Virus record (IMG/VR): IMGVR_UViG_3300012642_000011
Span: 352,001 to 416,000 of that record
DNA length: 64,000 bases
DNA from: a virus
Reading direction: 5' to 3' (one strand)
The translations under genes were made by a program, and so were the position numbers. Position 1 is the stretch's first letter. Each line of letters starts with the position of its first letter. The notes under the pieces were generated by a model. That model searched no databases. It saw nothing but the letters and a program-made list of their open reading frames with translations, and was not told where the DNA came from. Below are positions 17,515 to 37,900 of this stretch, piece by piece.

Positions 17515-17643
17515 GTTGTCCTCTCGATTCCTTCAGATCTATAGCTATATCGATCATTCTGTAACAATCATACCAAAATTTCAACCCAAAGACAAATGGG
17601 CCGGATGTTTAACACCCAGCCCATTTTATCAGAGAACATCAGA

Positions 17644-19839
17644 TCACTCTGCTGTTGCCCTCACAAAGTCAATGACAATGTTGTAAGGGTTATTGTAAAT
17701 TCTTTCATCACCTTCAGTTTTATAAGCAAACGGATTATTGAAACCAGTTGAAGTTCCACTTCCTGTGTTTGCATTCAAGTACTCACTACCAAGATCCTCA
17801 GCGTTAGAGTTAAACATAGCAAAGCATCTACCCTCAATAGGTGCTTCCACTGTGCCAACGTTTTTCATGACAGGTGTAGAAACATTCTTAGATACTCCCA
17901 CCGTAGTTGGAATATCCGCTTTACCTGTCACATCATATTCCCATGCAGCATTCAATACTTGAGGATTACCCTTTTCTGAAGGCCAATTTGCTCTTACATT
18001 GAACACATTGTGAGATCCATCAAGAACGGAAACATTGGGGGATTTGAATGTCGCTTTATCCCAACCCTTTTGCTCTGCTACGGAATCAGATCCAAAAACA
18101 GAGTTCTTTTTACTATCGGTCATGACAAATTCTCCTGCAGAACCATCAGCACCAGGTGTGCCGTTGGGATCTTTGAAGACTGTTGTTGTCTTTGGTGTAG
18201 CCTTGGGAGCAATCTCAGGTCTCCAAAGGTTAATCGTAATCGTTCTTTTTGGATCGTTATCTCTGAAGATTGCCAAATTCTTTCCATCAAACTTACTATC
18301 ATCAGAAATCTTCACACCAGTTCCACCATCCTTGCCTGGAGAATAAGCAGGAAGTTCGTTGGGTTGAATCCTTCCATCATCGCCACCACTTACCCTTGAT
18401 GTAGGTGGAGCATAGCACTGAAGACCACATTCTTTATCATAGAAACCATTTTGTGCAGTTCTACGCAATACTCCATCAGTCTGACTTGGATTTCCAAGTT
18501 TCTTCTGAGTGGTATCATTATACATAATAGTCTTGATAACGCCAGCAGTTCCTGTTCCCTGATTAATTATCTCAGAAGAAAGTACTTCATTTTTCTGTTC
18601 ACCATTTTTCTGAACAGCATTTTCCAGAGTACTCTTGACCTTGTTAAATTCTTCAGGATTACACTGAACAACAAGGATCTGCCAGAAACCTACGTTCTCC
18701 TGTGTTGTATTTGTAGTGCTGACAGTGGAGCCAACCCCTACTTTCTCTTCACCCCATCCACTACAGGTTGTGCTTGGTACCCATTCTTCATTTTTCAATT
18801 CATACTTCTTTTCACATGTTCTCTTCTCAATCACTGTCTCAGTTTCTCGAACAGTAATTGTTCCTGGCTGATTGAACTGATTAATGGACATAACTCCACC
18901 TTCAGCAATAGCCTCCTTGTTTTGGTCATTTAAGTCCATCTCGTAAGAAGCGGCCTTGTCTTTAGACATAGCGCTTTCAACCAATGTATTTACATCTTCA
19001 ATGGATTTTCCATTAAGATCTTCTGCTTGAGCCTGTTTCCACAGGTTTCCAAACTGAGTTACATTTGCTTTTGACTGGCTCTGCAAAGCGATTTTTCCTG
19101 GGTCAAAATCTGGCTTTGCAATCAAGTTCACATTGATAGGATTGGTCCAGCTTTTCACCTTTCCTGTAGCCCTTGTCTTTTCAAGAGCATCATTCCTGTC
19201 TCTTGTGGCCTTACCATCTTTATCTTTGTACTCTGTCCACTTATTTCCCTGAGGCTGGGCACCAACAAGAGAGCCAGAGCAGACAAGCGTCCATGGCTGG
19301 GAGTTCAACTTAGCCGTACCATACTCCTTGATCATGGCATCAATCTGTTTCTGAGTTGGTTTGACTCCATATGTCAAAGCAGGGTTCAATACTGTTCCAT
19401 TGACACCAATTGCCTTGTGGTCAGCAGTGCTGGCAAGTTTACCATCCTTAGTCAAGATAGTTCTCTTATCTGTACCATTGATAGTGTTTACCCAATAATA
19501 ACTTCCATTATTATTATTTACCGTGTACCAAATAGTATTTGATTTTTCGCAGACTTCTCTATCAAAGTTTTTCAACTCATTAAGTTCACCATCAAGATAC
19601 TTTGGCTCAAGACCACTGAACTTTCGGAAGTTTTCCCAAGCAGTATTTCCATTTCTAGCAGATACGGAGAACCAGTTGACAGAATCAGAACTCAAGTTTT
19701 CTGTACTTGATCCGCCATCATTTCCCCAGATACCGAAATTAATACCCTGAGCAACAGCAGGAGCAGCCGTTGCTAGAGCAGTTCCGCCAGCAATGACGGA
19801 CAATGCCAACATGTTGACCTTTCGTGTTTGCTTTTTCAT
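17644..19839 (-). CDS. Secreted large surface protein (731 aa) with cleavable signal peptide
   Basis: Signal peptide MKKQTRKVNMLALSVIAGGTALATAAPAVAQG. G/N/T-rich. No LPXTG motif. Confidence 0.5.
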   Translation of the reverse strand: MKKQTRKVNMLALSVIAGGTALATAAPAVAQGINFGIWGNDGGSSTENLSSDSVNWFSVSARNGNTAWENFRKFSGLEPKYLDGELNELKNFDREVCEKSNTIWYTVNNNNGSYYWVNTINGTDKRTILTKDGKLASTADHKAIGVNGTVLNPALTYGVKPTQKQIDAMIKEYGTAKLNSQPWTLVCSGSLVGAQPQGNKWTEYKDKDGKATRDRNDALEKTRATGKVKSWTNPINVNLIAKPDFDPGKIALQSQSKANVTQFGNLWKQAQAEDLNGKSIEDVNTLVESAMSKDKAASYEMDLNDQNKEAIAEGGVMSINQFNQPGTITVRETETVIEKRTCEKKYELKNEEWVPSTTCSGWGEEKVGVGSTVSTTNTTQENVGFWQILVVQCNPEEFNKVKSTLENAVQKNGEQKNEVLSSEIINQGTGTAGVIKTIMYNDTTQKKLGNPSQTDGVLRRTAQNGFYDKECGLQCYAPPTSRVSGGDDGRIQPNELPAYSPGKDGGTGVKISDDSKFDGKNLAIFRDNDPKRTITINLWRPEIAPKATPKTTTVFKDPNGTPGADGSAGEFVMTDSKKNSVFGSDSVAEQKGWDKATFKSPNVSVLDGSHNVFNVRANWPSEKGNPQVLNAAWEYDVTGKADIPTTVGVSKNVSTPVMKNVGTVEAPIEGRCFAMFNSNAEDLGSEYLNANTGSGTSTGFNNPFAYKTEGDERIYNNPYNIVIDFVRATAE

Positions 19840-20873
19840 TATTCCTCCATAGTCAAAGAAGCATTATTAACTAATATCTTCCTTGAACTTTCAACGTTTT
19901 CCTTCTGACCAGAAATGAGATCCAAGACTAGTGTTCCTTGTTTCTCTATAGAGCCACCATTCTTTAAAAGAGCACGATAGGTGACATCAGCAGTCAATGT
20001 GACATCATATGCCGAAGAAGAATCATCATACTTCATCTGCGTTTTAATTCCATTGACCTCTCCATACCATCTATAGCCGAATTCAGGGAACTGACCAGCC
20101 ATACCATATTCATTGTTCCCCCAATCAAGAGGAAGACCAATATTGGTTTGCTTTGCGCCATCATTATCAATCTTTTCCTTAAGACTTGAACTCAAAACAG
20201 GATTCAATGATGTTGCTTTAAAGTTCTTTGCAGGATCAGATCCAGGCAACTCATACTCTCCCCACTCGCCAACATCAGGATTGGTGAACATTTCCAGAAT
20301 CATATTGGTATCAAAAACAAATTGCTCTTGAGTCCAGTAACTGTACATAGGGTTAGGGAATCCAGTTTCATCTACAGCCTTGGAATCATCAGAGGTGAAA
20401 CCTGCCTCTTCAGAAGGAAGCATGTTTGAAGCAGCGTAGAGATCGCTTTCCTGAGTGTTTACACTAGCAATCACAGCATCAACCATCTCTTTGTCCGCTT
20501 GAGTAGCCCATGTAGTACCATCAAAACTGATAGGAGAAGATTTTTCTGTGAACTTTTCCAGCCATTCAGGCTTATCATCAATGTCATTGCTATCAGCAAG
20601 GCTGAGGTCTTGAGCAATGTTTGCTTCTGTGTTTGTGTTCCCAGAATTAGGGTCACCCTTCTTCATATAATTGCTATCTGAAGAAGATGAATCGTCTTTA
20701 GGAGTATCATCCTTATCGTTATTGAGAAGAAGTAAAGTACCACCAGTCAGAGCGCCCACGACAGCCAGACTTGCTACGCCGCCGATGATGAGTTTCTTCC
20801 TCTCAGCCTCCTGTTTATCACGACCTTCATTGAGGTATTCCTCAAATGGATCATCATATTTCTTTTTAGCCAT
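19839..20873 (-). CDS. Membrane-anchored extracellular protein (344 aa)
   Basis: TM KKLIIGGVASLAVVGALTGGTLLLL, then an acidic extracellular domain. Confidence 0.45.
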   Translation of the reverse strand: MAKKKYDDPFEEYLNEGRDKQEAERKKLIIGGVASLAVVGALTGGTLLLLNNDKDDTPKDDSSSSDSNYMKKGDPNSGNTNTEANIAQDLSLADSNDIDDKPEWLEKFTEKSSPISFDGTTWATQADKEMVDAVIASVNTQESDLYAASNMLPSEEAGFTSDDSKAVDETGFPNPMYSYWTQEQFVFDTNMILEMFTNPDVGEWGEYELPGSDPAKNFKATSLNPVLSSSLKEKIDNDGAKQTNIGLPLDWGNNEYGMAGQFPEFGYRWYGEVNGIKTQMKYDDSSSAYDVTLTADVTYRALLKNGGSIEKQGTLVLDLISGQKENVESSRKILVNNASLTMEE

Positions 20874-20942
20874 GAATTGTCACTTTCCTGATCAGAGTTG
20901 CCAATGGTATCGTAATATGTATATCGAAAAAATTGATCTATT

Positions 20943-21485
20943 TTACAGCATTGTAGTAATAATAGTGGTCACTGCTGTCACCATTGCTGCTAACATCGCA
21001 GGGGAAATGAAGTGAATCCCACCAATCATCTTATTCCACTTGTCTTCTCCTACCTCTAACATGATACTTGCAGGAGTTCCTCCGGTGACTCCCCATTCTT
21101 TCTTTGCTTTGGAAAAACTTCTATATGTAGCAATTCCTATGAAAGCAATGAGCAAGACAACAAACATTGCAGACGGCCAGAATCCAATATACCATGGGAA
21201 CATAGACATGATGACAAGGAACACTTTGTAATCCTCAGCCCCTGCTTTCTGCCCAAACAGACCTGCCATTAAGAACAGTGCGGCCAATGACACGGCAAGA
21301 ACAATAAGCGGAGAGAATATGAGAATTGTCCCCAAAAGGAAGTAAGAAGCAACAATCTTCAAACCAGTCAGAAAAATCATCAGGAAGATGAATCTAACCA
21401 TATCCAACTTTGTCACTATCAATAATACGAAAGCAAGAAATAGCGGGATAAAATGCACCAAATAGGTCAATACGAATTCATTCAT
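20943..21485 (-). CDS. Polytopic membrane protein (180 aa, 5-6 TM)
   Basis: Hydrophobic throughout. A prepilin-peptidase-like role is conceivable, but no catalytic Asp motifs were recognised. Confidence 0.35.
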   Translation of the reverse strand: MNEFVLTYLVHFIPLFLAFVLLIVTKLDMVRFIFLMIFLTGLKIVASYFLLGTILIFSPLIVLAVSLAALFLMAGLFGQKAGAEDYKVFLVIMSMFPWYIGFWPSAMFVVLLIAFIGIATYRSFSKAKKEWGVTGGTPASIMLEVGEDKWNKMIGGIHFISPAMLAAMVTAVTTIITTML

Positions 21486-22687
21486 TTATCCCATCCTCCC
21501 TCGATGTCAAATTCATCATCTTCATCGATAAAGAAATCAGTATTAATTGTTTTCTGCTGCTTCACATTGTAATTTGATGAATCGTCATCATCTACATCAG
21601 GAAGATCAAAGTCATCATCGTGAACAACTCTTCTTTCATCAGAAGATAAAATTTCATCTTCTCTCTTCTCTTCTTGATAATTGAGTTCGTTTTGAAGTTC
21701 ATGGTTTGATTTTTCAATCTCTTCAAGTTGTGACAACAAGAGGGAATAATTATCTTCAAGAATTTTATACTTCTTATTGAGATCAGAGTATTTCTTCTGA
21801 ATTTCGCTATCACTCTGTGTAGCAATCATTTTCTCGATCTGTGCATTCTTTTCCTTTTTCAACTTGGCATTTTCGGCAAATAACAAGTTAACTTTAGTCT
21901 GAAGTTCATCGTTGGATTCGCCTGCCATAACACTCACGCTATTGTTTTTTGACACCATTTCATAATCGTATCTCATGTTATGCAAGTCAATGGTCTGTCT
22001 GTCAATAATGTTAGCAAGCACAACAATATGCTTGTTTCTCTCCTTGAGTTTATCTTGAAGAAATCCTACAGACGCTTTTACCCTTGAGACGAAACTGTTC
22101 ACTTGTGCAATGTCGTAGCCTTTGGGAACTTGGAAATCAAGCTCAAGGTCATCGAGATCTTCTCTTAAGAAAACATCATTGGGGATTTCAAATGTCTCAG
22201 GGATACTAAAGCCTTCAAGTATGTCACTTGCCCTCTTCTTCTTGCCCTCTTCAGTATTGAATTCAATGCCTTCAAAGGCATCATGATTATCTTCTACAAA
22301 AAATTCTGTTTCTTCTTCCTTTTCTTTCACTTTAGGTGTAGGTAAAGATGATTTGAGAGCATTGATCTTCTCCCCAAAGTTTACCTTCTTTCTTTCCTTC
22401 TTTGGCTTTTCTGGTTTAGCAACAGGATCAGGGTCTTCCTCTTCGTACTCTTCATCATCAAAGGAATCTTCTTCCTCATCATAATCATGAACGTCAGAGT
22501 CATCATAGTCTACATAGTTTTGATCGTCATCGTCGTCATCATACTGATCAAAATCATTCTCAATGGTCTCTTCTTCGTCATTATATTCATTTCTGGGGTC
22601 ATTCCAATCTACACGACGGATAGTTTCTTCCCCAAACCCCTCGCTATAAGCCTGAATTTTACTCTTTGCCTTATCCAAAAGTCCCAT
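21482..22687 (-). CDS. Acidic coiled-coil protein (401 aa)
   Basis: N-terminal poly-D/E/Y stretch, a central K/E-rich region, a heptad-like coiled coil, and an acidic C-terminus. Confidence 0.4.
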   Translation of the reverse strand: MGLLDKAKSKIQAYSEGFGEETIRRVDWNDPRNEYNDEEETIENDFDQYDDDDDDQNYVDYDDSDVHDYDEEEDSFDDEEYEEEDPDPVAKPEKPKKERKKVNFGEKINALKSSLPTPKVKEKEEETEFFVEDNHDAFEGIEFNTEEGKKKRASDILEGFSIPETFEIPNDVFLREDLDDLELDFQVPKGYDIAQVNSFVSRVKASVGFLQDKLKERNKHIVVLANIIDRQTIDLHNMRYDYEMVSKNNSVSVMAGESNDELQTKVNLLFAENAKLKKEKNAQIEKMIATQSDSEIQKKYSDLNKKYKILEDNYSLLLSQLEEIEKSNHELQNELNYQEEKREDEILSSDERRVVHDDDFDLPDVDDDDSSNYNVKQQKTINTDFFIDEDDEFDIEGGWDK

Positions 22688-22740
22688 TGTTATTCCTTTG
22701 ATTAGTTAGTGGATGAATTGTGCAATGAATATCACTGTCA

Positions 22741-23097
22741 TCACAGGTCTTCTTGTGTTTCTTCTAAATCTTGTTCGTCATATTTCTCTGATCTACGATA
22801 AATCTCTGAAGGAGTCATTGTGATGTCTACACCCAAATTCCCCTCATACAGTCTGATCCATCCTTGAATGAACTCAAGTGTCAGCCCATCATAATCAGAC
22901 TCATCCCACATTCTCGTAGATTCTCTTAAGTCAATATAATTGATAATTTCTGATGGATACCAGTCATCCATCTCTGAGAGGTCAAAACCTTGCTGTACTA
23001 ATTGCATATGCATATTAAACACTGGTTTCAATGCAGCTACTTTGGCAATGATTTCCCATGTAACAATATTGCTTTCTTCATCCATATTATGTCTCAC
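22741..23097 (-). CDS. Small acidic hypothetical protein (118 aa)
   Basis: Intact ORF immediately downstream of the 1105-aa gene. Confidence 0.35.
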   Translation of the reverse strand: MRHNMDEESNIVTWEIIAKVAALKPVFNMHMQLVQQGFDLSEMDDWYPSEIINYIDLRESTRMWDESDYDGLTLEFIQGWIRLYEGNLGVDITMTPSEIYRRSEKYDEQDLEETQEDL

Positions 23098-26000
23098 CTC
23101 TCTGTTTCAATTTTCTTCTCGTAAAGAGACAACAGGAACTCGTCATTGATAACGTTCTCGTTGAATTGATCTCTGAATCGATCAGCATAAGCAGTGATGT
23201 ACATGGATCGCACAGCATTGTAGTTTCCAAGTACCCAATGTTTATTGTACTCCTGCTCATCAATATAAGGCTTGATTTCCTCAGGAAGCGTTGGGATCAA
23301 ACTATCCTTGTTTTCATCTCCGCTTTCCCTATGCTCTACAATCCTTCTGTCAACCTCATTGATCTTGCGCTCAAAAGTATTTCTTACCTTCTCTTCAATG
23401 TATGGTCTCCTCTTGTCTGTAGCATCATTGATCATCTGTTGATACTTAGCGTAGAAATTATCTTCTTTCAAAGATTCAGTCTTGACGTGCTTAGCCCTGT
23501 TGTTGGCATCATTCATGGCAGCATAGATTCTTTCTGCTTGCTCACGTGTCAACTTTCCTCTACTGTTGACCTTATTCTGGTTCTTTGCAGTCTTCCTTTG
23601 ATGCTTTTGTTGCTTATGTAGCATCTTCTTCTCTATTCGTGCTGTTTCCCTTGCATCCTTAACAACCCTTTCAGGAGTCAAAACTTCCTCATGGTACTTG
23701 ACTTCTGAACCTTCATACTCTGCAATCTTAGATCTTCCATCGACGCCTTCAACAGTACTGTCCATCTCATCAAAGAAGCAGCGTCTGCAATAAAGGTTTC
23801 CAGCAGCATCCTTGCCGCCCTTGAAGTTAAAGGTTCCACTGTCAGGAGAGAGGTCTTGTCCACATCTGTTGCAGTGGTATTCTTTCTTACCTACCTTTGC
23901 TGTAACGGGGGAGAGAAGACCTGCTGTGTCCTCTTCAAGACAGGTGTTGCAGAAGTACTTTCCAGATGCATCTCTACCTCCATAGAACACCCCTGAACCG
24001 TCTCGATCAAGTGGTTCACCACAACCTCCACATGTATGTTGACCAATTGATGCATGGCCCATGTTCTGTTTTGAGATTTCGTACTGAGTAATAATGTTTC
24101 TCAAGTGCTTATTACGATAAGTGATGTTCGTCATCTCATTCTTGAAACCATAAGCGAGACCATTCAATGTGCTTCCACCATTTGCTCTTGCTGCTGCAGC
24201 ACCACCAGCGACAGATCCAATCATTCTTCCTGTTGCCACTGTTGGATCAACAGTTGTCTTGCTTACAGTTTTCTTCATTCCTGCAGATACTCTCTGAGCA
24301 GAACGCGTCATGCTGTATCCTGCAAAGCTGAAGGATGACATTGTTCTGAAGACCATTTCTCTTCCCTTGATCAATGCCAACATGGAAACAATGAGAAGAA
24401 GGATTCCCTGTATCCATCCAATATCTTCCATCATCTTCAATGCTGCTGATGTGAAGGCAATAGCAAGGACAAGAAGAATTCCTGCAGCAATACGCTTACC
24501 AGTTGCTTGCACTATCAAGGTGATCCAACTCTTAAAGATCTCCCAACCCTGACCTGGGAAACAACCGACCAAGAGGACTACAGGGGCAAACGCAATCATC
24601 AATGTCACACCGATAGCATAAATTGCTGAAAGAGATGCAAAAATGATGATACCAGAAGATCCGACTGCTGCAATGATGACAGCGCTACCTGCCACCCAAA
24701 TCCTCTCCATAGTGTTTCCACCAGTCCATGTGTCCCAATAAGGAGAAACGTTGATGTCATCAGCGATCACTTTGTATTCATCTGTAGGCTCGCCTGGTTC
24801 ACCAGAAGGAGGAACACTCTTCTCGTAGTATCCACTCAAGACATCCGCAACTCTCCACCAATCATTTGCAAGTCCAGTAGTCTTTTTGGCAACATCTCCC
24901 TCGTGACCGATAGGAGCGTGGACATTGGTCTGTGTGCTGATTTGGAACAATGCCCAGTTATGGATGAATGTTCCATCACCCATAGGAACAGCAGCATCTC
25001 CTACCATTTCAGCGTTTTCATCTCTGTTTTCCAGATCTGTTGCGCCATTAGGTGCCCAATCAGGAATTTCTCCTCTTGCCCAAAGATTATTCCAATCTGT
25101 GCCATACTGTGCCTGTGCCCATGGCTTGAGAAGAAGCATTTGCCACATTTGGCACCCTACAGATGACCTGATGGTGGTAGATGCTTGATCAATGATGCTC
25201 ATAGTCTTTTCTGGATTGTCAATTGCATAGTCAACATCAATGGATGAACTAAGAATCTTTCCTTCAAAGCTTCCAATGTCTGTAGCACACATTCCGCCAC
25301 CACCAGAAAGACTATTATTCATAGCGCTAAGAGTGACAGCCTGAATGATCATAGAGAGGTTATTGGGAAGCGTGATAACCCATCCTGGAGAGAACGAAAT
25401 GAAGATGGCGAGGAAGAACAGCACAATGGATCTAATCGTCTCTGAGAGGGCCTGTCTCGTCTTGCCACTGGCTCCTGCACGGATGATGCTAATACCAACA
25501 AACACAAAGACAAGGACAATGAACGGCATGAACACGCTATTGAAGAGAGCAGTGATGAAACCACCTGATGATCCCAATAGTGTGTCAAGACCGATCAAAG
25601 TGATGATGTCACTGAAGGCAATGCCAACAAGAGCAACCGTCAAAACTACAATAATCTTTGCCAGCGTGAAAATCCAGTTAGCAACAATGTTCATGAACGC
25701 TACGCCCACAGGAGGATAACCCTTATTGAAGATCTTTGTTCTAGGATCTTTACTGTCGTTGATGTCAGCCCACACGCTTCGTGGTTCTAGCCTGTCCTCA
25801 TAGAACAATCCCGCTTTAGGATCAGATGGTTCAGTATTTTGAGCACATGCATCAATGACCACATGCCTCCATTCACCCATGTAACCACTGAAAGTAAGTC
25901 CAGCAACACCGAACCTATCGAATGGGTTGATATGCGCGCCCTTATTGAACCTTTCCTCTGGATCAAGTTCCATGTCCACAGGGTATTTCATCTCAGTGAG

Positions 26001-26411
26001 TTCTGTCACATTATAGCCAAGAATATGGCTATTAAGTTCATTGATGTTGGTAACAGAAGTGAGATTTAATATACCGTTCAAAAAAGAATCTACTTTGTCT
26101 GCACCAGAAGTCATAGCACTCTTCGACCTGAAAGCAAACTGAAGATCAGTGGTAGAAGCATACTGATAGATTCTATCTGCAGGCTCAGGGAACACCTCAC
26201 ACATCATGAACTTATTCCATTCCAGTGCAGATGCTGAACTTACTGTAGGTTCATTCTTGTTGCCGAAAGTTGTCAAAGAAGTCATAGTAGGAAGCAAAGC
26301 AACAACAATGAAAAATCCTGCCATGAAGAAGGAGAATATTGATTTGAATGATGCAGGTTTCGTCTTCTTAAATGAAGATGCATCCATATACACTGCATTA
26401 TTCTTCATCAT
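23094..26411 (-). CDS. Giant VirB6/TrbL-like polytopic membrane protein (1105 aa) with C-terminal double zinc-ribbon and basic coiled-coil tail
   Basis: Multi-TM core with the segment AFAPVVLLVGCFPGQGWEIF, paralogous to cores in the 1397- and 1927-aa proteins. Two C4 ribbons: CGGCGEP ... CNTC and CNRCGQD ... CRRC. Confidence 0.55.
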   Translation of the reverse strand: MMKNNAVYMDASSFKKTKPASFKSIFSFFMAGFFIVVALLPTMTSLTTFGNKNEPTVSSASALEWNKFMMCEVFPEPADRIYQYASTTDLQFAFRSKSAMTSGADKVDSFLNGILNLTSVTNINELNSHILGYNVTELTEMKYPVDMELDPEERFNKGAHINPFDRFGVAGLTFSGYMGEWRHVVIDACAQNTEPSDPKAGLFYEDRLEPRSVWADINDSKDPRTKIFNKGYPPVGVAFMNIVANWIFTLAKIIVVLTVALVGIAFSDIITLIGLDTLLGSSGGFITALFNSVFMPFIVLVFVFVGISIIRAGASGKTRQALSETIRSIVLFFLAIFISFSPGWVITLPNNLSMIIQAVTLSAMNNSLSGGGGMCATDIGSFEGKILSSSIDVDYAIDNPEKTMSIIDQASTTIRSSVGCQMWQMLLLKPWAQAQYGTDWNNLWARGEIPDWAPNGATDLENRDENAEMVGDAAVPMGDGTFIHNWALFQISTQTNVHAPIGHEGDVAKKTTGLANDWWRVADVLSGYYEKSVPPSGEPGEPTDEYKVIADDINVSPYWDTWTGGNTMERIWVAGSAVIIAAVGSSGIIIFASLSAIYAIGVTLMIAFAPVVLLVGCFPGQGWEIFKSWITLIVQATGKRIAAGILLVLAIAFTSAALKMMEDIGWIQGILLLIVSMLALIKGREMVFRTMSSFSFAGYSMTRSAQRVSAGMKKTVSKTTVDPTVATGRMIGSVAGGAAAARANGGSTLNGLAYGFKNEMTNITYRNKHLRNIITQYEISKQNMGHASIGQHTCGGCGEPLDRDGSGVFYGGRDASGKYFCNTCLEEDTAGLLSPVTAKVGKKEYHCNRCGQDLSPDSGTFNFKGGKDAAGNLYCRRCFFDEMDSTVEGVDGRSKIAEYEGSEVKYHEEVLTPERVVKDARETARIEKKMLHKQQKHQRKTAKNQNKVNSRGKLTREQAERIYAAMNDANNRAKHVKTESLKEDNFYAKYQQMINDATDKRRPYIEEKVRNTFERKINEVDRRIVEHRESGDENKDSLIPTLPEEIKPYIDEQEYNKHWVLGNYNAVRSMYITAYADRFRDQFNENVINDEFLLSLYEKKIETER

Positions 26412-29400
26412 TGATCCCCTCCCTCATCTTTCTTATTGTTCTCATACTCTTTTGCTTCTTGAAGGATTCTGATCTCTTTCTCTTTCTCCCCCAAGATAAG
26501 ATCAGACAATGCGTAATTGAAGTCCTGACTTGCCCTGAACTTCTTAATTGCGTCTTCCATCTTTTCTGTAGATGTCCTTCTCTTCTTGATGATCCTTAGA
26601 CGACGCACCTTCACCTTTCCAGTAATCTCTACGTCTGGTGTTGAAACAGGGGATGTTGTTTCATCCTGCTCTGGCTGATGTTGATTGTTCATCTGTTCAC
26701 CGGATGTAGATGTATCATCCTGCTGCTGATCACCTTGATCTGCGTTGGCTTTGTTATAGGCAGCCCTTGCTTCAGAAACTGATGAGAAATCTGTTGAGTA
26801 AGAGTCATCTTCTGCAATCTTATCTATTTCCTCATCCCTCTTTTTAGCCCTAGCATCCATGTACTTTCTAGCAGCCCTTGCTTCAGAAGCAGAGTTGATG
26901 TCAATCTTAGGGTTAGATGGCTTGTAAATCCTTGAACTCTCTGGAATTCCAGCAAGTCCTCGTGTAAAGTCAATGTCATCCTCATTAGCTGGGTTGACTT
27001 TGAACTTCTTGCCATTTTCATCAACTCTCTCCTTGGTAGAGAGGTCATTGTATGCAGAGAGATTCTTTCCATAGTCGTACATACTCATAGTTGAATTTCT
27101 CTTATTCTCATCACCCTTCTGCTCCTCGAAGTCTTTCTTTGTTCCGTAAAGTTCATCTACTGCGCCATTCTCTCTCATCTCGTTTTCAAGATCGTTTCTA
27201 ATCTTATTACTTGTAGAAGAATATGCAGTTCCGAAGGACTCAAGTGCAGAGAATCCACGCCTCCTCTGGTTCTTGTGAACCTTTCCTGTCTCGTAATCGT
27301 AGCCAGCCTTTGCCCCTGCAAGAGCGCCCTTGAGGTCTCTGCTTCCAGACATGTAAGAACCAATTCCACCTGAAACCACGCCCTTGGCCGCAGCCTTAGT
27401 GTGCTCTGCACGATTAGAGATGAACCTGTTTTGACCAAGAACATTAATTGTAGACTTGATAGGCTCATTTGCAATTCCGGCAGCCACATGCCTTCCTATG
27501 CCATTGGTGATGTTAAACGCCCCTTCTAATGCTTCCTTCTTGAGTGAATAGAAGATTACTGCTCCAATACATACAAGGACAAGAGAAATCAGCGGGCTAC
27601 CGCCGAAGTTGGCGAACCCAATCAAAACTTTGAACATAAGAGACATGAGAACAACCAAAACAACACGCTGAATCATCAAGCCCAGAATGGTTGCAGCATA
27701 GCCTCTAAGCATCCTTCTACCTGGTCCGGGGAGGATTCCAACAAGCAGAACAAAAGGAAGCATGATCAGCATTATTGTTGTGATGATAGAAATCTGTATC
27801 TTGACTACAGAATAGGAAATGATCACCACAGATGACACTACAGATGTCACAGCACCAGAGAGACCACTTGTTATCCTGCTGCCATAGTCTTGACCTGTCC
27901 ATGCGCTGAAGTATCGTCCATCTGTTCCAGCACCGTTGTTTGGACCTGCCTGCATGTCAACAATTCTGTAGAAATCGGGATCAATAGAACCATTGGGTTC
28001 TGTCAGATCCTTCTCATAGGCAGTTCCGCTGGTTATTGTGCTCAAATGGTACAAAGCCCAGTTGTTCACAGTTTTTCCGCCGCCCATTTCTACAGGAGCA
28101 GATCCTACAAGTTGCTCATTGGAATTCTGCATGGTTCCCTTGACGCCTTCAGTTCCATTGGCATAAAGTTCGTCGTAGGAAGTTCCCCACTGGCCTACAA
28201 CCCATGGTGTGAATGAGAATGCTCTCCAACTTTCACACATCAAGAATCTCACGTTACCCTGAACACTGTTTCCTGTTGCTTCTCCATCAAATCCAACAGT
28301 GCTATCAGACATGGATTCACCTGTGACAGAACACAAGACATCCTGTGATTTTCCAAAATTAAAGATAGTTCCCATAACCCATGACTCAAAGTTGGTAGGA
28401 ATGGTCTCTACTGCTTTGATGGTTTCTGCTGGCCTAGTTAACAGCGCAACTCCTGCAATCATAGTGAGCATAGCAAGCAAAGCGTTGAGGAACTGCTCTC
28501 TGAAGTTTCTCTTGATAATAACTTGGAAAATCATGATCACGCCGACTGCTGCACCTATGATGACGCTGATAGGGAAGAAGATGCCATCTCTATATGATTC
28601 CATTAGGCTGACAACAATCTTATTGATTCCCAACTCTTCTCCAATAGGCATGAAGGAAAGATTGATGACAGTGTTGGCAATTCTGTTGAAGAAAATAGCA
28701 ATGTCGAGACCAGATTTGGCAATACTGCTGAAAATGAGGTCGATAGGGAAAATAACCTCAAACATACTCTTTTGTGACAATGTGTTTCTTGTATCTACGT
28801 CAGGCTTTGACTGCCCATCAACATATCCGTTTCCGAAGAAGCCATTTTGAATAGGAGGACGTGGAGCACCTCCCCCACACTGGTCATTCAAAGACCCGTC
28901 TGGGTTAAATACCTTAACATTGTGACCATTTATCCTGAGGTCTTTTCCTGAGGAATCAAGGCAAACAAACCTGTTCCATGGAGCATTAAAGTTTCTAGCG
29001 GGATCTTCTTGAATCCATTTAAGGAACTTTTGGCTACTGATAGCATCTTTAGTCCACTCTTTAGTGACTTCTTTTTCAGACTTAATCAGCGCTTCATCTC
29101 TGGCCTTGTTCCATTCCTCTGACCAGCAATTGACAACCTTGGCAACTTCTGCAGCCACAGCCTCTTCGTCTTTTACGTCCAGATTAGGCTTACATGCCAT
29201 GTTATACTTCTCACCGATGGAGAACGCCTTGTCTCTAGCAACCCATTCTTTCAATGACTCTGCTTTTTGGGTTCCATCTTCTGACCATGTATACTTTGCA
29301 TCGTCAACGTCAACAGCACCTTGAGCATCTTTTGCTCTGGACGCACATGCTTCCTCACTGATGCCAGGTGCTCTAGAGGGTTTGACCTTGACTACTTTCC

Positions 29401-30601
29401 CATTACGATCAGCATATTCACAGTAAGAGATGCCTTCTTTTGGACCCTGTGGTGGACTGGAGATGGACAGAAGATCAGCGGGAACTTTTGCCTCTTCTGG
29501 AGTTGTACCCATGACCATAGCAACAAGTTGTTTTACAGCCTCACGGGAGATTTCTTCATTGGAGAGTTCTCTGGCGTTATAGAGCGTGGAACCATAATTG
29601 TCCCTAAACCATGCGTAGTTTGCGACAACATTATAATCTGATGTGTCCAGAACAGTATTCACAGAATCTGTGACAGATCCAATGACAAATCCAGAGTAGA
29701 GACCGCCGATAGCGCCAATGATGTCGCCCTTTTTCATTCCACTGATGAATTCTTCACCGGCTATTCCTAAACCTTTATGTACGCCGGAAAATGCTGCTTT
29801 TCCTGACATACCAATCATGTCCATCATACCGAAGTTAGAAAGCATTCTTGCTGATGTAGCAACTCTAATCTGGTCCCATTCACCGTAGTAGTTGGTGTAT
29901 CTTAGGTTGTATCCGAAGAGTTCAAGACCAGAGTACTTGTAGTATCTTTTGCTTGGATCTGAAGAGGGTTCCATAGCCTTAGTAATTGCACTAGGCATTC
30001 CGAATGCAGGAGTGTCAATTTTAGAAGAGGTCACGTTTGCACCCTTGGGGCCTGTGAATCCAATGAAGGAGATAAGATCTTGAAGCATCTCTGTAGGAAC
30101 GTTAGGGATGTCACAGTTGTGATAGAGAGGCGTTCCTGCCCACTTGTCGTCAACATTACACATGAAGTTTTTATTGACTGTTGTGGGAGTGTCTTTACTG
30201 GTATATGCTAGGGGAGCTTGGTTTAGGTACTTTCCTGCACCTGCAACTCTAGCCAAGGCACCACCAATAGTGTTTCTTTCCTGAGTCGGGTCTACATAAT
30301 CAAATATTGGCTTTTCGCCTTCTTGGTCAGGGTCTTTGAATTCCTTGAAATAATTGTTGAAAGCCTCTCTGACTTTGTTTTGTAGTTCTCTTTCTTGTTT
30401 GTCTGATTCAGAACTTTGTGCGGATGCTGTAGTGGCTTGCATACTGGATGACAATCCTACAAAAGCGAAGGAGATAACCGCTAAAAGGGAAAAGAGCATA
30501 AAAAAGAAAGGTCTGATGATAGAAGTTTTTTCTATCACAGATTTTTCAAGATATACTGATCCCTTGTTCTTAGACATAGATATATTAATCTCCTGTAGCA
30601 C
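26408..30601 (-). CDS. Giant VirB6/TrbL-like polytopic membrane protein (1397 aa), paralog
   Basis: Signal/TM N-terminus, a large extracytoplasmic domain, then a multi-TM core containing GGGKTVNNWALYHLS ... IMLPFVLLVGILPGPGRRMLRGY. A disordered acidic C-terminal tail. Confidence 0.55.
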   Translation of the reverse strand: MLQEINISMSKNKGSVYLEKSVIEKTSIIRPFFFMLFSLLAVISFAFVGLSSSMQATTASAQSSESDKQERELQNKVREAFNNYFKEFKDPDQEGEKPIFDYVDPTQERNTIGGALARVAGAGKYLNQAPLAYTSKDTPTTVNKNFMCNVDDKWAGTPLYHNCDIPNVPTEMLQDLISFIGFTGPKGANVTSSKIDTPAFGMPSAITKAMEPSSDPSKRYYKYSGLELFGYNLRYTNYYGEWDQIRVATSARMLSNFGMMDMIGMSGKAAFSGVHKGLGIAGEEFISGMKKGDIIGAIGGLYSGFVIGSVTDSVNTVLDTSDYNVVANYAWFRDNYGSTLYNARELSNEEISREAVKQLVAMVMGTTPEEAKVPADLLSISSPPQGPKEGISYCEYADRNGKVVKVKPSRAPGISEEACASRAKDAQGAVDVDDAKYTWSEDGTQKAESLKEWVARDKAFSIGEKYNMACKPNLDVKDEEAVAAEVAKVVNCWSEEWNKARDEALIKSEKEVTKEWTKDAISSQKFLKWIQEDPARNFNAPWNRFVCLDSSGKDLRINGHNVKVFNPDGSLNDQCGGGAPRPPIQNGFFGNGYVDGQSKPDVDTRNTLSQKSMFEVIFPIDLIFSSIAKSGLDIAIFFNRIANTVINLSFMPIGEELGINKIVVSLMESYRDGIFFPISVIIGAAVGVIMIFQVIIKRNFREQFLNALLAMLTMIAGVALLTRPAETIKAVETIPTNFESWVMGTIFNFGKSQDVLCSVTGESMSDSTVGFDGEATGNSVQGNVRFLMCESWRAFSFTPWVVGQWGTSYDELYANGTEGVKGTMQNSNEQLVGSAPVEMGGGKTVNNWALYHLSTITSGTAYEKDLTEPNGSIDPDFYRIVDMQAGPNNGAGTDGRYFSAWTGQDYGSRITSGLSGAVTSVVSSVVIISYSVVKIQISIITTIMLIMLPFVLLVGILPGPGRRMLRGYAATILGLMIQRVVLVVLMSLMFKVLIGFANFGGSPLISLVLVCIGAVIFYSLKKEALEGAFNITNGIGRHVAAGIANEPIKSTINVLGQNRFISNRAEHTKAAAKGVVSGGIGSYMSGSRDLKGALAGAKAGYDYETGKVHKNQRRRGFSALESFGTAYSSTSNKIRNDLENEMRENGAVDELYGTKKDFEEQKGDENKRNSTMSMYDYGKNLSAYNDLSTKERVDENGKKFKVNPANEDDIDFTRGLAGIPESSRIYKPSNPKIDINSASEARAARKYMDARAKKRDEEIDKIAEDDSYSTDFSSVSEARAAYNKANADQGDQQQDDTSTSGEQMNNQHQPEQDETTSPVSTPDVEITGKVKVRRLRIIKKRRTSTEKMEDAIKKFRASQDFNYALSDLILGEKEKEIRILQEAKEYENNKKDEGGDQ

Positions 30602-30643: not shown

Positions 30644-31195
30644 TCATTCAGATGAATCATCGTCAATGACGTAAGTGATCCCCTTGCATGTATCAGGCCA
30701 GTTGCCACAGAAGCGACATTCATATCCCCATCTCTTTGAATTCTCAGCAAAGTATCCATCTTGAATTTTCACTCTTCTGAAACCAAGCGTTTGTAGCACT
30801 TGTTGGTTCCCGATTAAGGGTACGCCTGGTTCACCATCCCTGTCCTCAACTCTTGGTGTCTTAAGAATAAGTTCTACTCTGCTTGCACCATAACTTGCAA
30901 TCTTCCTTAGCACACTGAAAGTGATCAGAGTCCCAAATCCATCTTTTCTGTAAGGTGTCGATACGCAAACACAGTCAATGACTCCTACTGTTTTGGTTCC
31001 TTTTCCAGGAATCCTTACATTTTTAAAATGGTAAAGTCCAAAACCCACAAATTCCCCGTTGGAAATCTTAATGACCATATGGTATGTATGAGCATAGCTG
31101 CCAAACATTGACTTGAGCACACCTGCACCCAAGGACTCGTTGGCTATCGCTTTGATCTCTGGTGGAAGAGAATTATATGTGAGTTTTGCCGTCAT
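30644..31195 (-). CDS. GNAT family N-acetyltransferase
   Basis: Motif-A-like VGVIDCVCVSTPYRKDGFGTLI. 183 aa. Confidence 0.5.
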   Translation of the reverse strand: MTAKLTYNSLPPEIKAIANESLGAGVLKSMFGSYAHTYHMVIKISNGEFVGFGLYHFKNVRIPGKGTKTVGVIDCVCVSTPYRKDGFGTLITFSVLRKIASYGASRVELILKTPRVEDRDGEPGVPLIGNQQVLQTLGFRRVKIQDGYFAENSKRWGYECRFCGNWPDTCKGITYVIDDDSSE

Positions 31196-31265: not shown

Positions 31266-31619
31266 TCATTTTTGCTTCGTATTAGGAATAACATGATCTA
31301 ATGCTAATTGTCTCCACGTGTCCTTTGTTGGCTTATCAATCTTTCCATTGTTCATGAGTTTCCACAGTTGTCTGATCTTCCAACTCAAACTTGTTTTCAG
31401 CCTTTTGGACTTCCCATATGTTGACTTATTATGCTCATAACTCGTGATCTCAATGAATCCTGGTATCTTTAATTCTCCATTATTCATGATTTCATCAACA
31501 ATGATATCAATGGTCCCATCGATCACATCATGGACAATATCCGGCCTGATTCCAACATGAGTTGAGACTTTTCTTGCAAGTTCTCTTGTGTTTCCTGTTG
31601 CTTTCCTTGGCTCAGGCAT
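31266..31619 (-). CDS. Divergent HU/IHF-like DNA-binding protein (tentative)
   Basis: The N-terminal half aligns in pattern with the HU helix-turn and arm (TRELARKVS ... GELKIPGFIEITS). Confidence 0.35.
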   Translation of the reverse strand: MPEPRKATGNTRELARKVSTHVGIRPDIVHDVIDGTIDIIVDEIMNNGELKIPGFIEITSYEHNKSTYGKSKRLKTSLSWKIRQLWKLMNNGKIDKPTKDTWRQLALDHVIPNTKQK

Positions 31620-32195: not shown

Positions 32196-32486
32196 TCACT
32201 CGCCAGCAACTGTGCGCTTGATAACAGCAGCAGGTGTGAACTTGACTCGCTTCTTGGCAGGAATATCAATCTCCTCGCGGGTACGTGGGTGAACACCCTT
32301 ACGTGCCTCGCTGGTGGAGACCTTAGCAGTGAACAACCCGCTAATCTTCACGTCGTTGCCATCGCCCAACTCGTTCTTGATCAAGTCAATTACGAGGTCA
32401 ACAATGCGTGCTGCCTCAGCCTTGGAGATGTCCTTCTTTGTTGCAACATCAGCAACAAGATCTGCCTTTGTGTAAGTCTCAGCCAT
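32196..32486 (-). CDS. hup: HU family DNA-binding protein
   Basis: 96 aa. The DNA-binding arm reads GLFTAKVSTSEARKGVHPRTREEIDIPAKKRVKFTPAAVIK. Confidence 0.8.
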   Translation of the reverse strand: MAETYTKADLVADVATKKDISKAEAARIVDLVIDLIKNELGDGNDVKISGLFTAKVSTSEARKGVHPRTREEIDIPAKKRVKFTPAAVIKRTVAGE

Positions 32487-32870: not shown

Positions 32871-33919
32871 TATTTCGCTCCTTTATTAAAGAGTTTGGAA
32901 TAATTCGTATTCCTCGTCTCGCTTTCTTGTTCTATCCTTGATATCAACGCTCCCACATGGAACTCCTCATGAGGATCTTTCTCAAGATCCTTAAGGAAGG
33001 AGAAGAAGAGAGAATGTGGATCACGAAGGTATTTCTTCCATACCGTAGCCAAAGATCTGTACTCAGAAGGCGTCATTGTTGACACCACATTTAAAAGATA
33101 ATCACCCATAGAAGGCACATTCATCTCAGAAAGAAGAACGGCTTTAGCCTGATCTGTGAAATCTCCTGTCTCAAGAAAACGGCCAAAAAGACTCTCCCCT
33201 AAAATCTCGCTGTCATGATCAGAGAAAGAACCTGTAGAGACAGTATCCTGAGTATCAATGGACACTACGCCCATGTCGCCTTTATACAATGCTTCTTGCT
33301 CTTCAATGAGATCAATAGTCATCTTCTTATTGGATTCATAAGCAACATCTGAAGAACCCACGCGTCCATTCTTGTTTTCAATGTCAGCAGAACCAGAATG
33401 GAAATACTCAAGCACTTCTTCATTGGAGACTTCTCTTCCACGCTCCGAAGAAAGTTTCGATCTTACAGCAGCAATCTTCTTCATCTTCTGATACCTACTA
33501 GGAGCAATGCCTTCAGGTGTTTCCAAAGAAAGCATCTCCTTCTTGCTATAAGTAGTGATCCACTGAAGAAGATAATTAGTAGAAGAGACATTGATCTTGT
33601 CTACATCAAACTTTCTCAAACCCCTGATCATTCCACCGATTCCAGCTTGGTACACAGTATCGAAGATAGTGGGATCTTGAGAAATGGGGATTCTAGAAGA
33701 TTTAATAATTGAAGCCACTTCTTTTACAATCAATGGCGCGCACAAGTCGCTGATCCTAGAGATAGCAATTGACCTCATACGAGCCACTGATTCCAACCTG
33801 TTCCTCTCATGAGGATCAAGGTCTTCTTCTAACAATAAATCCATAGCATGATCTGCTTGCTGGAAGATGGGAACATAGTGTCTTAAATCCTCTACGGTGA
33901 TCCTATCTGATCTTCTCAT
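32870..33919 (-). CDS. Sigma-70 family-like protein (region 2 recognisable)
   Basis: FDTVYQAGIGGMIRGLRKFDVDKINVSSTNYLLQWITTY matches the sigma region 2.1-2.4 pattern. Region 4 is not clearly recognisable. Confidence 0.45.
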   Translation of the reverse strand: MRRSDRITVEDLRHYVPIFQQADHAMDLLLEEDLDPHERNRLESVARMRSIAISRISDLCAPLIVKEVASIIKSSRIPISQDPTIFDTVYQAGIGGMIRGLRKFDVDKINVSSTNYLLQWITTYSKKEMLSLETPEGIAPSRYQKMKKIAAVRSKLSSERGREVSNEEVLEYFHSGSADIENKNGRVGSSDVAYESNKKMTIDLIEEQEALYKGDMGVVSIDTQDTVSTGSFSDHDSEILGESLFGRFLETGDFTDQAKAVLLSEMNVPSMGDYLLNVVSTMTPSEYRSLATVWKKYLRDPHSLFFSFLKDLEKDPHEEFHVGALISRIEQESETRNTNYSKLFNKGAK

Positions 33920-37661: not shown

Positions 37662-37900
37662 AATGCCCCTCTTTATATTAATAGGATACTCTTTTCGATA
37701 CCACTATCTTAACAAAAATAAGGGTTGATCGAGTCCATGATCAACCGTTAATCTAAATAGTAGTAAATAGATTATCGCTTACGCGATTGTGAGAATCCTG
37801 CTCTCACTAATCGCTTCACAGACAGGAGTTTCACTTGGTGAAACCAAGCCAGCGCTTCCGTCTCCACGACCGTTTAACGTCTCCCCGCAACTCTGGGCGA
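37662..37900 (-). ncRNA. Predicted omega RNA (reRNA) region overlapping the tnpB 3' end and right end
   Basis: By analogy with IS605 TnpB systems, the guide RNA spans the tnpB 3' end to the element's right end. The 8-bp-stem hairpin at 37723..37746 sits in this region. Not verified. Confidence 0.25.

Follow-up and report, generated by a model that had tools for sequence, protein, structure and literature searches.

Three giant genes in the 64,000-nucleotide stretch of DNA that we analysed (the window), here called A, B and C, encode proteins that the evidence supports as copies of VirB6, the channel or stalk subunit of type IV (conjugation-type) secretion machines. Our preferred reading, to which we assign a probability of roughly 0.6, is that they are non-redundant extended VirB6 proteins within the conserved backbone of a giant, plasmid-like extrachromosomal relative of the oral Inocles, acting as specialised subunits of an envelope-spanning transfer apparatus in which B and A make an obligate pair and C is the relaxosome-proximal copy.

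The three giant open reading frames of 1105, 1397 and 1927 aa described in the first-pass annotation are present, all on the minus strand: A at 23094..26411 (1105 aa), B at 26408..30601 (maximal ORF 1397 aa) and C at 47601..53384 (maximal ORF 1927 aa). The real start of B is most likely the ATG at 30577, behind an AGGAG, which gives 1389 aa, the length of a 99%-identical relative (P0093). That of C is most likely the TTG at 53291, again behind an AGGAG, which gives 1896 aa and agrees with the family alignment. The stop of B and the start of A overlap in an ATGA preceded by GAGGGAGG, the stop of A overlaps the start of the first downstream gene, and the stop of C overlaps the start of a lysozyme gene. 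A family HMM search of the window gave these three copies and nothing further.

The motifs originally quoted as evidence of paralogy were all recovered: NWALYHLS in B, NWALFQIS in A, and the segments IMLPFVLLVGILPGPGRR (B), AFAPVVLLVGCFPGQGW (A) and IFAPFFLLFAAHPGRGKR (C). Pairwise identity among the proteins is 22-26%, with BLASTP E values of 9e-21 (A-B), 5e-25 (B-C) and 3e-26 (A-C). Family profiles of A and B aligned over 521 columns (E = 2.2e-61, probability 100%), and hhalign placed the C family against the A family over 636 columns (E = 4.1e-61, probability 100%). This similarity is well above what chance would give, and the hydrophilic loop is conserved as well as or better than the hydrophobic helices (0.62 versus 0.56-0.58 in A; 0.57 versus 0.47-0.49 in B). 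Both pairwise and profile alignments thus found collinear conservation where generic hydrophobic helices had been named as the refuting outcome.

The family comprises 1470 representatives (clustered at 50% identity, E <= 1e-3). Average-linkage clustering of cores separated three groups that were exactly the A (167), B (81) and C (65) types, equally distant from one another, with core identities of 0.38-0.41 inside one type and 0.21-0.22 across types. As judged by sequence comparison, A, B and C are confirmed as genuine, anciently diverged paralogues representing three separate, widely represented orthologous groups, and because each type is widely conserved with features of its own (the zinc ribbon of A-type proteins, for example), we regard them as non-redundant. 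The view that the copies are recent redundant duplicates, decaying genes, or proteins alike merely as generic hydrophobic helices has the low pairwise identity in its favour and nothing else, and is refuted by the dozens to hundreds of intact orthologues per type, the clean three-way clustering with its within-type identity, the hydrophilic character of the best-conserved segment, the profile scores and the specificity of the fold matches.

Assignment to VirB6/TrbL is direct for C, which matched Pfam PF04610 at 39.6 bits (gathering cut-off 25.9; E = 6.5e-10; residues 464-627), as did 13 of 18 C-type relatives (E <= 0.001). A and B had no match to PF04610 at E <= 1; precomputed matches exist for 24 of 89 orthologues of the A type and for 5 of 72 of the B type. 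We count A and B as VirB6/TrbL proteins on the basis of these orthologues, the profile homology at ~1e-61 and the fold matches. Predicted models of A and B show the VirB6 fold seen in TrwI and DotA, and the matches are specific. The first-pass annotation had also stated that its proposal would fall if no VirB6/TrbL relationship were detectable; such a relationship was found, through the PF04610 match in C and the profile homology that links A and B. The nearest curated model was NCBIfam NF046089, the CD3337/EF1877 family mobilome membrane protein of Firmicutes mobile elements, which all three proteins matched over the C-terminal helix bundle. Because they score 47.1 (A), 37.9 (B) and 50.6 bits (C) against a curated cut-off of 120, we consider them related to the CD3337/EF1877 family but not members of it; all NCBIfam matches of A, B and C lie under curated cut-offs.

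A consists, in order, of an N-terminal anchor helix, an ectodomain of ~190 aa, hydrophobic helices, a conserved loop of ~180 aa carrying NWALFQIST and DWWRV.D, a C-terminal helix bundle carrying APVVLLVGCFPGQG, and a 417-aa tail. Two Cys4 zinc ribbons occupy residues 794-824 and 847-878 of that tail (23778..24032, minus strand), and their Cys columns are nearly invariant in the A-type alignment; at least one such ribbon is present in 152 of 166 A-type tails, 0 of 81 B-type tails and 0 of 64 C-type tails. The N-terminal ectodomain of B spans ~560-615 aa and gave no structural match. C, whose core is collinear with that of A, ends in an acidic tail of ~1290 aa with tandem repeats (102 bp x 2.5 copies, encoding the 34-aa unit EDLSRYSDEEIAEMYPDPAVSESARDFDAPARTA, at 49398..49653, minus strand; and 27 bp x 3.1 at 49973..50057). 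The description of differing long tails was thus borne out by the zinc ribbons of A and the acidic, repeat-bearing tail of C. The companion claim, a different large insert in each protein, holds for the N-terminal ectodomain of B only, A and C being collinear from the N-terminus onward.

By definition, an extended VirB6 combines the VirB6 core with at least one large hydrophilic domain in a central or C-proximal position (PMC12857230). The window proteins fit this, with ectodomains of ~170-615 aa and tails that range from 372 to 1292 aa. A hydropathy scan combined with model secondary structure placed at least five hydrophobic helices and a large central hydrophilic loop in them, with an uncertain number of membrane spans; hydropathy is an unreliable guide to VirB6 topology because only two helices of TrwI cross the membrane (PMC12857230). 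Some A-type orthologues carry M23, VanY, NlpC/P60, glucosaminidase or lysozyme domains inserted in the loop, directly before the TrbL region, and these wall-hydrolase inserts suggest that the loop of A-type proteins may lie outside the cell.

We compared related loci to assess the conservation of the trio. B lies immediately upstream of A in 49/49 informative loci (locus GC 0.29-0.62), and the order C...B-A recurs on IMG/VR contigs of 20-420 kb (locus GC 0.31, 0.37, 0.42 and 0.49) with 17-24 kb between C and the pair; where enough sequence is at hand, all three types are present together. Three copies had been called unusual; they are not peculiar to this element and are invariant across a superfamily of giant elements. 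A 437,576-bp contig encodes near-identical proteins, assemblies of ~345 kb recur, and the locus is also found on contigs of 670-828 kb (one of 828,236 bp). No relatives were found in 185,579 GTDB species genomes, by the same kind of pattern that gave 51 IMG/VR loci, or among PLSDB plasmids and phage records. On this comparative evidence, the trio in fixed order is a constant feature of giant plasmid-like elements that make up an extensive family, hardly described so far, in human-associated microbiomes.

The 64-kb window contains no tRNA, rRNA, ribosomal-protein, housekeeping or metabolic genes, and its gene set (PhoH, T4-type RNA ligase, HNH, TnpB, GmrSD, NikA and a coupling protein) is typical of mobile elements; the best plasmid matches of TnpB are weak (<40% identity) and actinobacterial. 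GC content is 0.39-0.47 (mean ~0.42), all genes lie on one strand, and GC skew is steady. We treat the window as part of an element rather than a chromosome because it lacks tRNA and housekeeping genes, no relatives were found in the GTDB species genomes, ~345 kb assemblies recur, and Inocles are reported as oral elements of 245-395 kb with VirB4 and VirD4 (PMC12340149). It is very improbable that it derives instead from the chromosome of an unbinned ultra-small, Patescibacteria-like bacterium whose chromosomal type IV secretion system (T4SS) bears these VirB6 copies: the 670-828 kb contigs do match small cellular genomes in size, one-strand genes and steady skew would suit such an origin, and Patescibacteria retain a monoderm-type T4SS with VirB6 (PMC12102498), but the missing cellular genes, the GTDB result set against the 51 IMG/VR loci, the recurrent assemblies and the mobile-element-like gene set all oppose it, and Inocles reportedly lack bacterial marker genes as well (PMC12340149).

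The T4SS-related genes recognised in the window, besides the trio, encode a coupling protein, a VirB4-N-like protein, a VirB11-like ATPase, a lysozyme and a NikA-like protein. The lysozyme (46186..47604, minus strand) is a membrane-anchored Phage_lysozyme2 wall hydrolase with a VirB1-like role, and its gene is always downstream of C-type genes in relatives. A VirB11/TrbB/TadA-like secretion ATPase (33916..35196, minus strand; Pfam T2SSE, 4e-25; synteny) scored 1.7e-39 against the VirB11 model TIGR02788, under the model cut-off, and holds a conserved position upstream of the B-A pair. Upstream of both is another conserved neighbour, a Rad50/SbcC/SMC-like ATPase (35358..37661, minus strand). The NikA-like protein, a ribbon-helix-helix relaxosome accessory (57117..58004, minus strand), is conserved directly upstream of C-type genes. 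The 461-aa VirB4 N-terminal-domain-like protein (58836..60221, minus strand) aligns to positions 3-429 of the 813 in the NCBIfam TcpF model (1.2e-11) and also matches CD1110, TraC and VirB4_CagE; its Walker A motif and ATPase half are absent, and relatives keep an equal length. At 62406..63881 (minus strand) lies the C-terminal part of a VirD4/TraD-like type IV coupling protein (Pfam TraG-D_C and TrwB_AAD_bind; TIGR03743, CD1115), whose gene probably continues beyond the window end; a relative in another locus (L005) has 834 aa. Downstream of A, in the same orientation, conserved genes at 15808..23097 (minus strand; ORFs and synteny) encode a 118-aa acidic protein, a 401-aa acidic coiled-coil protein, a 180-aa polytopic protein, a 344-aa anchored protein, a 731-aa protein secreted by signal peptide and a 568-aa anchored protein, the last three without known domains. 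An ORF scan of the window recognised no complete VirB4 ATPase, relaxase, VirB3 or VirB8 homologue, so the transfer machine is incomplete as seen there; nor did the window show a recognisable VirB5/IcmX partner or VirB2 pilin.

If TrwI and DotA are a guide, each of the three proteins would probably oligomerise through its conserved loop and helix bundle, and the oligomers would serve as the stalk or protochannel at the centre of a type IV secretion apparatus that passes through membrane and cell wall. B and A most likely act together, since they are co-translated and always adjacent, and would make one two-component stalk in which the ectodomain of B extends outward and the zinc-ribbon tail of A lies on the cytoplasmic side. 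C would be the copy dedicated to the DNA-transfer route, a role that is most likely because its gene always stands beside those for the NikA-like, VirB4-N-like and coupling proteins and is coupled to that of the wall lysozyme.

That A, B and C build one stalk or translocon together, mixed or stacked in a hetero-oligomer and with no division of labour between B-A and C, appears improbable. There is one coupling protein, one VirB4-like protein, one VirB11-like ATPase and one stand-alone lysozyme for three VirB6 proteins, the block is fully co-oriented, and the three types occur together, as a shared structure would predict. C nevertheless lies at its distance from B-A with its own translationally coupled partner, the three types are equidistant, and a five-fold ring would be hard to share among three subunit types.

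A more serious competitor, though still an unlikely one, is that a non-conjugative type IV function, such as protein export, surface-structure assembly or cell-cell contact, is served by the whole trio or, at a minimum, by the B-A operon together with the VirB11-like ATPase and the downstream secreted and anchored proteins. The domainless 731-, 344- and 568-aa proteins encoded after A would suit such a function, as would the ~17 kb that separate B-A from the coupling-protein/NikA module. Elsewhere, multiple extended VirB6 proteins typify effector-type Rickettsiales systems (PMC7648143; PMC12857230), and Patescibacteria depend on a T4SS for their epibiotic lifestyle, a Southlakia VirB6 gene being needed for growth (PMC12102498). 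Against this, the coupling protein and the NikA-like accessory are encoded in the same co-oriented block, and neither effector-like nor toxin domains came up; the effector-like functions once suggested for the trio are speculation.

Returning to the specialised transfer backbone, we raise as a tentative possibility that it represents a separate type IV apparatus class, not yet described and found only on giant (~250-830 kb) Inocle-like replicons, perhaps comprising the three extended VirB6 types together with a VirB11-like ATPase, a VirB4-N-only protein and a Rad50-like ATPase. If so, stacked or paired VirB6 paralogues, some with wall hydrolases in the outer loop, would build a wall-spanning conduit and replace VirB5, VirB2 and VirB8, and very large DNA would pass between monoderm cells.

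The closest folds are those of TrwI (the VirB6 of plasmid R388) and DotA (Legionella Dot/Icm; PDB 7o3v, 8rtd, 9ngy), both from diderm hosts. Sequence identity to them is 6-13%, a PDB sequence search with the window proteins gave no match, and the window proteins have four to seven times the length of TrwI and DotA and carry an N-terminal ectodomain as well as 370-1290 aa tails.

A monoderm-type element is plausible: the best matches are to the Firmicutes models TcpF, CD1110, CD1115 and CD3337, the window yielded no outer-membrane core genes, and wall-hydrolase domains are inserted in orthologues. With the extended VirB6 proteins of the monoderm MPF_FA conjugation class the trio shares a polytopic core with large additional hydrophilic or unstructured domains, and neighbouring VirB4-like and coupling proteins that best match Firmicutes-type models (TcpF, CD1110, CD1115). 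The window proteins are larger, at 1105 to ~1900 aa against 700-900 residues, and there are three per element against a single VirB6 in each Gram-positive model system (PMC12857230). The VirB11-like ATPase fits a monoderm host awkwardly, since Gram-positive T4SSs are reported to lack one without exception (PMC12857230).

Rickettsiales (Anaplasma, Ehrlichia, Rickettsia rvh) likewise have several oversized VirB6 proteins per system, in part encoded in tandem, whose long extensions diverge (PMC7648143; PMC12857230). Theirs are effector-type systems encoded on the chromosomes of diderm, obligately intracellular bacteria, whereas the trio sits on a plasmid-like element with relaxosome and coupling-protein genes, and no close sequence relationship was seen. 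We also rejected the patescibacterial chromosomal T4SS, whose locus has full VirB4, TrsD, PrgI and VirB2-like arrays adjacent (PMC12102498); no relatives were found in GTDB species representatives, and the window shows no full VirB4 and no VirB2 array.

Inocles are giant oral extrachromosomal elements, circular, of 245-395 kb and 24-32% GC, in all of which VirB4 and VirD4 are reported and whose marker is the InoC gene with a Replic_Relax domain; the main text of that paper makes no mention of VirB6/TrbL (Kiguchi et al. 2025; PMC12340149). The window does not match this description, given its GC of ~0.42 and the lack of an InoC marker, with no Replic_Relax match among the scanned window ORFs. 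Its C...B-A backbone is nonetheless common to IMG/VR contigs of up to 325 kb with locus GC ~0.31, whose sample ids resemble Human Microbiome Project samples and which, matched by published description rather than by sequence, would be Inocles.

The three giant membrane proteins A, B and C are encoded on the minus strand at 23094..26411 (A, 1105 aa), 26408..30601 (B, maximal ORF of 1397 aa) and 47601..53384 (C, maximal ORF of 1927 aa). The first-pass annotation had placed all three at these coordinates, where they are indeed present, but the start sites that it gave for B and C need correcting. The most likely start of B is the ATG at 30577, which lies behind an AGGAG and yields 1389 aa, the length of a 99%-identical relative. 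For C it is most likely the TTG at 53291, again behind AGGAG, yielding 1896 aa. Read from this TTG, the N-terminus of C (MSGNANYL...) aligns with those of A (MMKNNAVYM...) and B (MSKNKGSVYL...) and fits the family alignment.

The proposed similarity among A, B and C proved real and collinear, and every motif quoted for them was found in the sequence. Pairwise BLASTP gave E values of 9e-21 (A-B), 5e-25 (B-C) and 3e-26 (A-C). Comparison of family profiles matched A with B at a probability of 100% (E 2.2e-61, 521 columns, A178-759 with B559-1100), and C with A at the same probability from the N-terminus on (E 4.1e-61, 636 columns). The hydrophilic loop that separates the hydrophobic blocks ranks first or close to first in conservation among the segments, and carries the common signatures C..W..P....G, NWAL and DW[WY]R. 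With a family HMM, the window yields three copies and no more; apart from these, its only paralogues are two small membrane proteins that form an unrelated pair.

A, B and C are almost certainly three paralogues of the VirB6 family, and several lines of evidence uphold their designation as VirB6/TrbL-like. C exceeds the gathering score of Pfam PF04610, as 13 of 18 C-type relatives also match at E <= 0.001. A and B themselves gave no PF04610 match; precomputed matches exist for 24/89 A-type and 5/72 B-type orthologues. The C-terminal helix bundle of each of the three proteins gives a match to NCBIfam NF046089 (CD3337/EF1877 mobilome membrane protein) with E values between 1e-10 and 1e-13, under the model's cut-off. 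AlphaFold models from deep alignments, predicted with confidence, cover A residues 1-780 (pLDDT 83, pTM 0.78) and B residues 1-1100 (pLDDT 77, pTM 0.68). We found no structural match for the large ectodomain of B, and a PDB sequence search with a family profile returned no match.

The three proteins share one layout: a short N-terminal cytoplasmic motif, a single anchor helix, an ectodomain, a hydrophobic block, the conserved loop of ~180-200 aa, a helix bundle containing the Pfam TrbL region, and a tail. The TrwI protein spans the membrane with just two helices (PMC12857230), so helix counts from hydropathy leave the topology unfixed. Ectodomains measure ~190 aa in A, 560-615 aa in B and ~170 aa in C, and tails 417, 372 and 1292 aa, respectively. 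As first described, the long tails differ, and they do so by type. A Cys4 zinc ribbon occurs in 152/166 A-type tails (twice in the A of the window) and in none of the B-type or C-type tails; the C tail is acidic, with 102-bp and 27-bp tandem repeats.

Wall-hydrolase domains of A-type proteins had been expected at the C-terminus, and were found instead within the outer loop, immediately ahead of the TrbL region. Six orthologues (P0024, P0052, P0057, P0078, P0091 and P0092) carry such insertions at the same spot, drawn from five different peptidoglycan-hydrolase domains (M23, VanY, NlpC/P60, glucosaminidase or phage lysozyme2); in the window's A this spot corresponds to the short variable stretch A531-558. 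The presence of hydrolase domains within the loop means that the loop must face the cell wall. We found no literature description of such a VirB6-VirB1 fusion, with a wall hydrolase in the VirB6 loop. One A-type orthologue, P0066, has an endonuclease/exonuclease/phosphatase domain within its N-terminal ectodomain.

Searched exhaustively with an HMM, 1.84 billion representatives yielded 1470 relatives at E <= 1e-3, of which 588 remained at E <= 1e-30. The sequences retrieved fell into three clean groups (A-type 167, B-type 81, C-type 65), with core identities of 0.38-0.41 within a type and 0.21-0.22 between types. A word-indexed search, with 3 matches, had made the C-type seem very rare; the exhaustive search gives at least 64 C-type representatives. 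In 49 of the 51 A-anchored IMG/VR loci B lies directly upstream of A, the other two being cut by the contig end, and C-type genes lie 14-25 kb upstream on the same contigs. Loci of GC 0.31, anchored on a conserved 428-aa protein, show the order 461-aa, GmrSD, NikA, C, ..., sigma, 428-aa, 231-aa, SMC-like, B, A. The trio was found at locus GC values from 0.31 to 0.49 and the B-A pair at 0.29-0.62, and two metagenomic contigs, of 697,643 bp (L061) and 828,236 bp (L059), carry the same backbone. At the B/A junction the stop codon of B overlaps the start of A (ATGA), with GAGGGAGG before it; the stop of A overlaps the next ORF, and that of C the start of a lysozyme gene. Judged from sequence, the trio is ancient and conserved.

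One co-oriented, minus-strand block of the window holds A, B and C together with T4SS-type genes. These encode a coupling protein truncated where the window ends, a NikA-like protein (a ribbon-helix-helix relaxosome accessory protein), the membrane-anchored lysozyme, a VirB11/TrbB/TadA-like ATPase (33916..35196) and a Rad50/SbcC-like ATPase (35358..37661). The last two genes adjoin upstream of B-A and are conserved in all related loci. A 461-aa protein (58836..60221) corresponds to just the N-terminal half of VirB4-type conjugation ATPases, aligning with positions 3-429 of the 813 in the TcpF model (E 1.2e-11); the ATPase half and the Walker A motif are missing. Related elements encode it at the same length, which excludes a local truncation. 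The 731-aa ORF at 17644..19839 was considered as a VirB4 candidate and discarded as a secreted protein, having a signal peptide, no Walker A motif and no matches. VirB11 is universally absent from Gram-positive T4SSs, according to a recent review (PMC12857230), and a VirB11-like ATPase would be unexpected in a monoderm host. The apparatus must then differ from known monoderm systems, unless the host is something other than a classical monoderm.

Several other minus-strand genes accompany this block. A TnpB gene (IS605/IS607-type OrfB, 37779..39128) lies between the 231-aa and Rad50-like genes, which are adjacent in the GC 0.31 relatives; it is therefore a local insertion. As a host indicator it was a failed lead, since its best plasmid matches are actinobacterial but weak, under 40% identity. 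Between the VirB11-like gene and B lie two HU-like genes (31266..31619 and 32196..32486), the second a 96-aa ORF below the first ORF-length cut-off, together with an RHH protein and a GNAT acetyltransferase (30644..31195) with 57-65% identity to its counterpart in most relatives of locus GC 0.42-0.57. Tandem paralogous single-helix membrane proteins of 199 and 193 aa (55859..56458 and 56504..57085; BLASTP 9e-25), with no family match, lie between the NikA-like gene and PhoH, and two related loci (L062 and L063) have a homologue at the same position. Downstream of the B-A block, a polytopic 336-aa protein (13086..14096) weakly matches SpoIIIAE (Pfam E 0.002), a sporulation protein that is a component of another envelope-spanning channel.

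We propose, with a probability of about 0.6 for the full statement, that the element's type IV apparatus uses A, B and C as stalk or translocon subunits with non-redundant roles. Co-translated, B and A would form a working pair, with the B ectodomain reaching outward through the wall and the A zinc-ribbon tail on the cytoplasmic side; the copy serving the module of relaxosome, coupling protein and lysozyme would be C. The analysis demonstrates the paralogy, the fold, the orthologous groups, the synteny and the coupling of genes; to these the proposal adds, by inference, an oligomeric state, a tail topology, a division of labour, a conjugative function and a monoderm host. The alternative that survives best gives the trio a non-conjugative role in secretion or adhesion. 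The block also encodes several secreted or anchored proteins of unknown fold, and the window shows no recognisable full VirB4 ATPase, relaxase, VirB3 or VirB8; the coupling protein and NikA-like protein speak for conjugation. A second alternative places A, B and C together in one machine, as their shared block would allow; the separate position of C, beside its own module, is more in keeping with a division of labour.

A cellular origin is far less probable than the extrachromosomal element assumed in the stalk-subunit proposal. All ~50 plausible genes of the window lie on the minus strand, with uniformly negative GC skew and a GC of ~0.42; there is no tRNA and no ribosomal, metabolic or other housekeeping gene, and an Rfam scan at gathering thresholds detected no RNA family. 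More than half of the proteins lack a Pfam, NCBIfam or PHROG match. The window encodes DnaB, RecA, SSB, the two HU-like proteins, sigma-like factors, PhoH, HNH and GmrSD nucleases, TnpB and the Rad50-like ATPase. RecA lies between a MoxR-type AAA ATPase and a DUF2201 metallopeptidase/VWA protein; these two, with a T4-type RNA ligase and a Hint/intein-like protein, occupy 4210..5601, 6854..8449, 9191..10654 and 11569..12231; such accessory functions are more typical of large phages and mobile elements. Scans of 185,579 GTDB species genomes found no A-family relatives, and a RecA scan of GTDB genomes gave no match. A Patescibacterial chromosomal origin was considered and rejected, as was a huge phage: no structural phage genes were found, and Inocles, giant oral extrachromosomal elements, are reported to be intracellular.

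Neither PLSDB plasmids nor phage records gave a megablast match to 24 kb of the window, and tblastn of the C core against plasmids found a single weak one, in Nonomuraea. Near-identical proteins occur on a 437,576-bp contig, and a 42%-identical relative on independent 343-347 kb assemblies. The locus recurs on contigs from ~345 kb (repeatedly, in near-equal assemblies) to 828 kb, at locus GC 0.29 to 0.62, and relatives are common in IMG/VR contigs whose sample ids resemble Human Microbiome Project samples. From this spread of sizes and GC, the giant replicons would seem to form a very broad family, of which many members are classed as viral in IMG/VR. Redundancy or chance similarity of A, B and C is the weakest alternative, as the conserved hydrophilic loop and shared signatures rule out generic hydrophobic helices.

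The fixed VirB6 trio offers a concrete, testable handle on the transfer or secretion machine of giant elements, and its family profiles are sensitive metagenome markers for them, many now being filed as IMG/VR viral contigs. It also bears on the role of the extra domains in 'extended VirB6', an open question in the T4SS literature, by bringing together three natural variants: a huge ectodomain (B), a zinc-ribbon tail (A) and a very long acidic repeat tail (C). The protein family itself is already known, and so are extended or multiple VirB6 copies, from Rickettsiales and MPF_FA systems (PMC12857230). New, as far as the literature we found extends, are a fixed trio of equally distant types in a giant Inocle-like backbone, its type-specific tails, the VirB6 loop with inserted wall-hydrolase domains, and the association of the trio with a VirB11-like ATPase and a VirB4 N-terminal-domain-only protein.

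Inocles are 245-395 kb in size, with a GC of 24-32%; they are oral and intracellular, are lost on liquid culture, and may have Streptococcus salivarius as host (Kiguchi et al. 2025, PMC12340149). The presence of VirB4 and VirD4 in all of them is the sole published evidence on their cell-to-cell movement, and the main text of that paper mentions neither VirB6 nor TrbL (PMC12340149). Our GC 0.31 group, whose contigs reach 325 kb, agrees with the published description of Inocles, whereas the window, at GC 0.42, falls outside the four described Inocle taxa and would belong to a wider Inocle-like superfamily.
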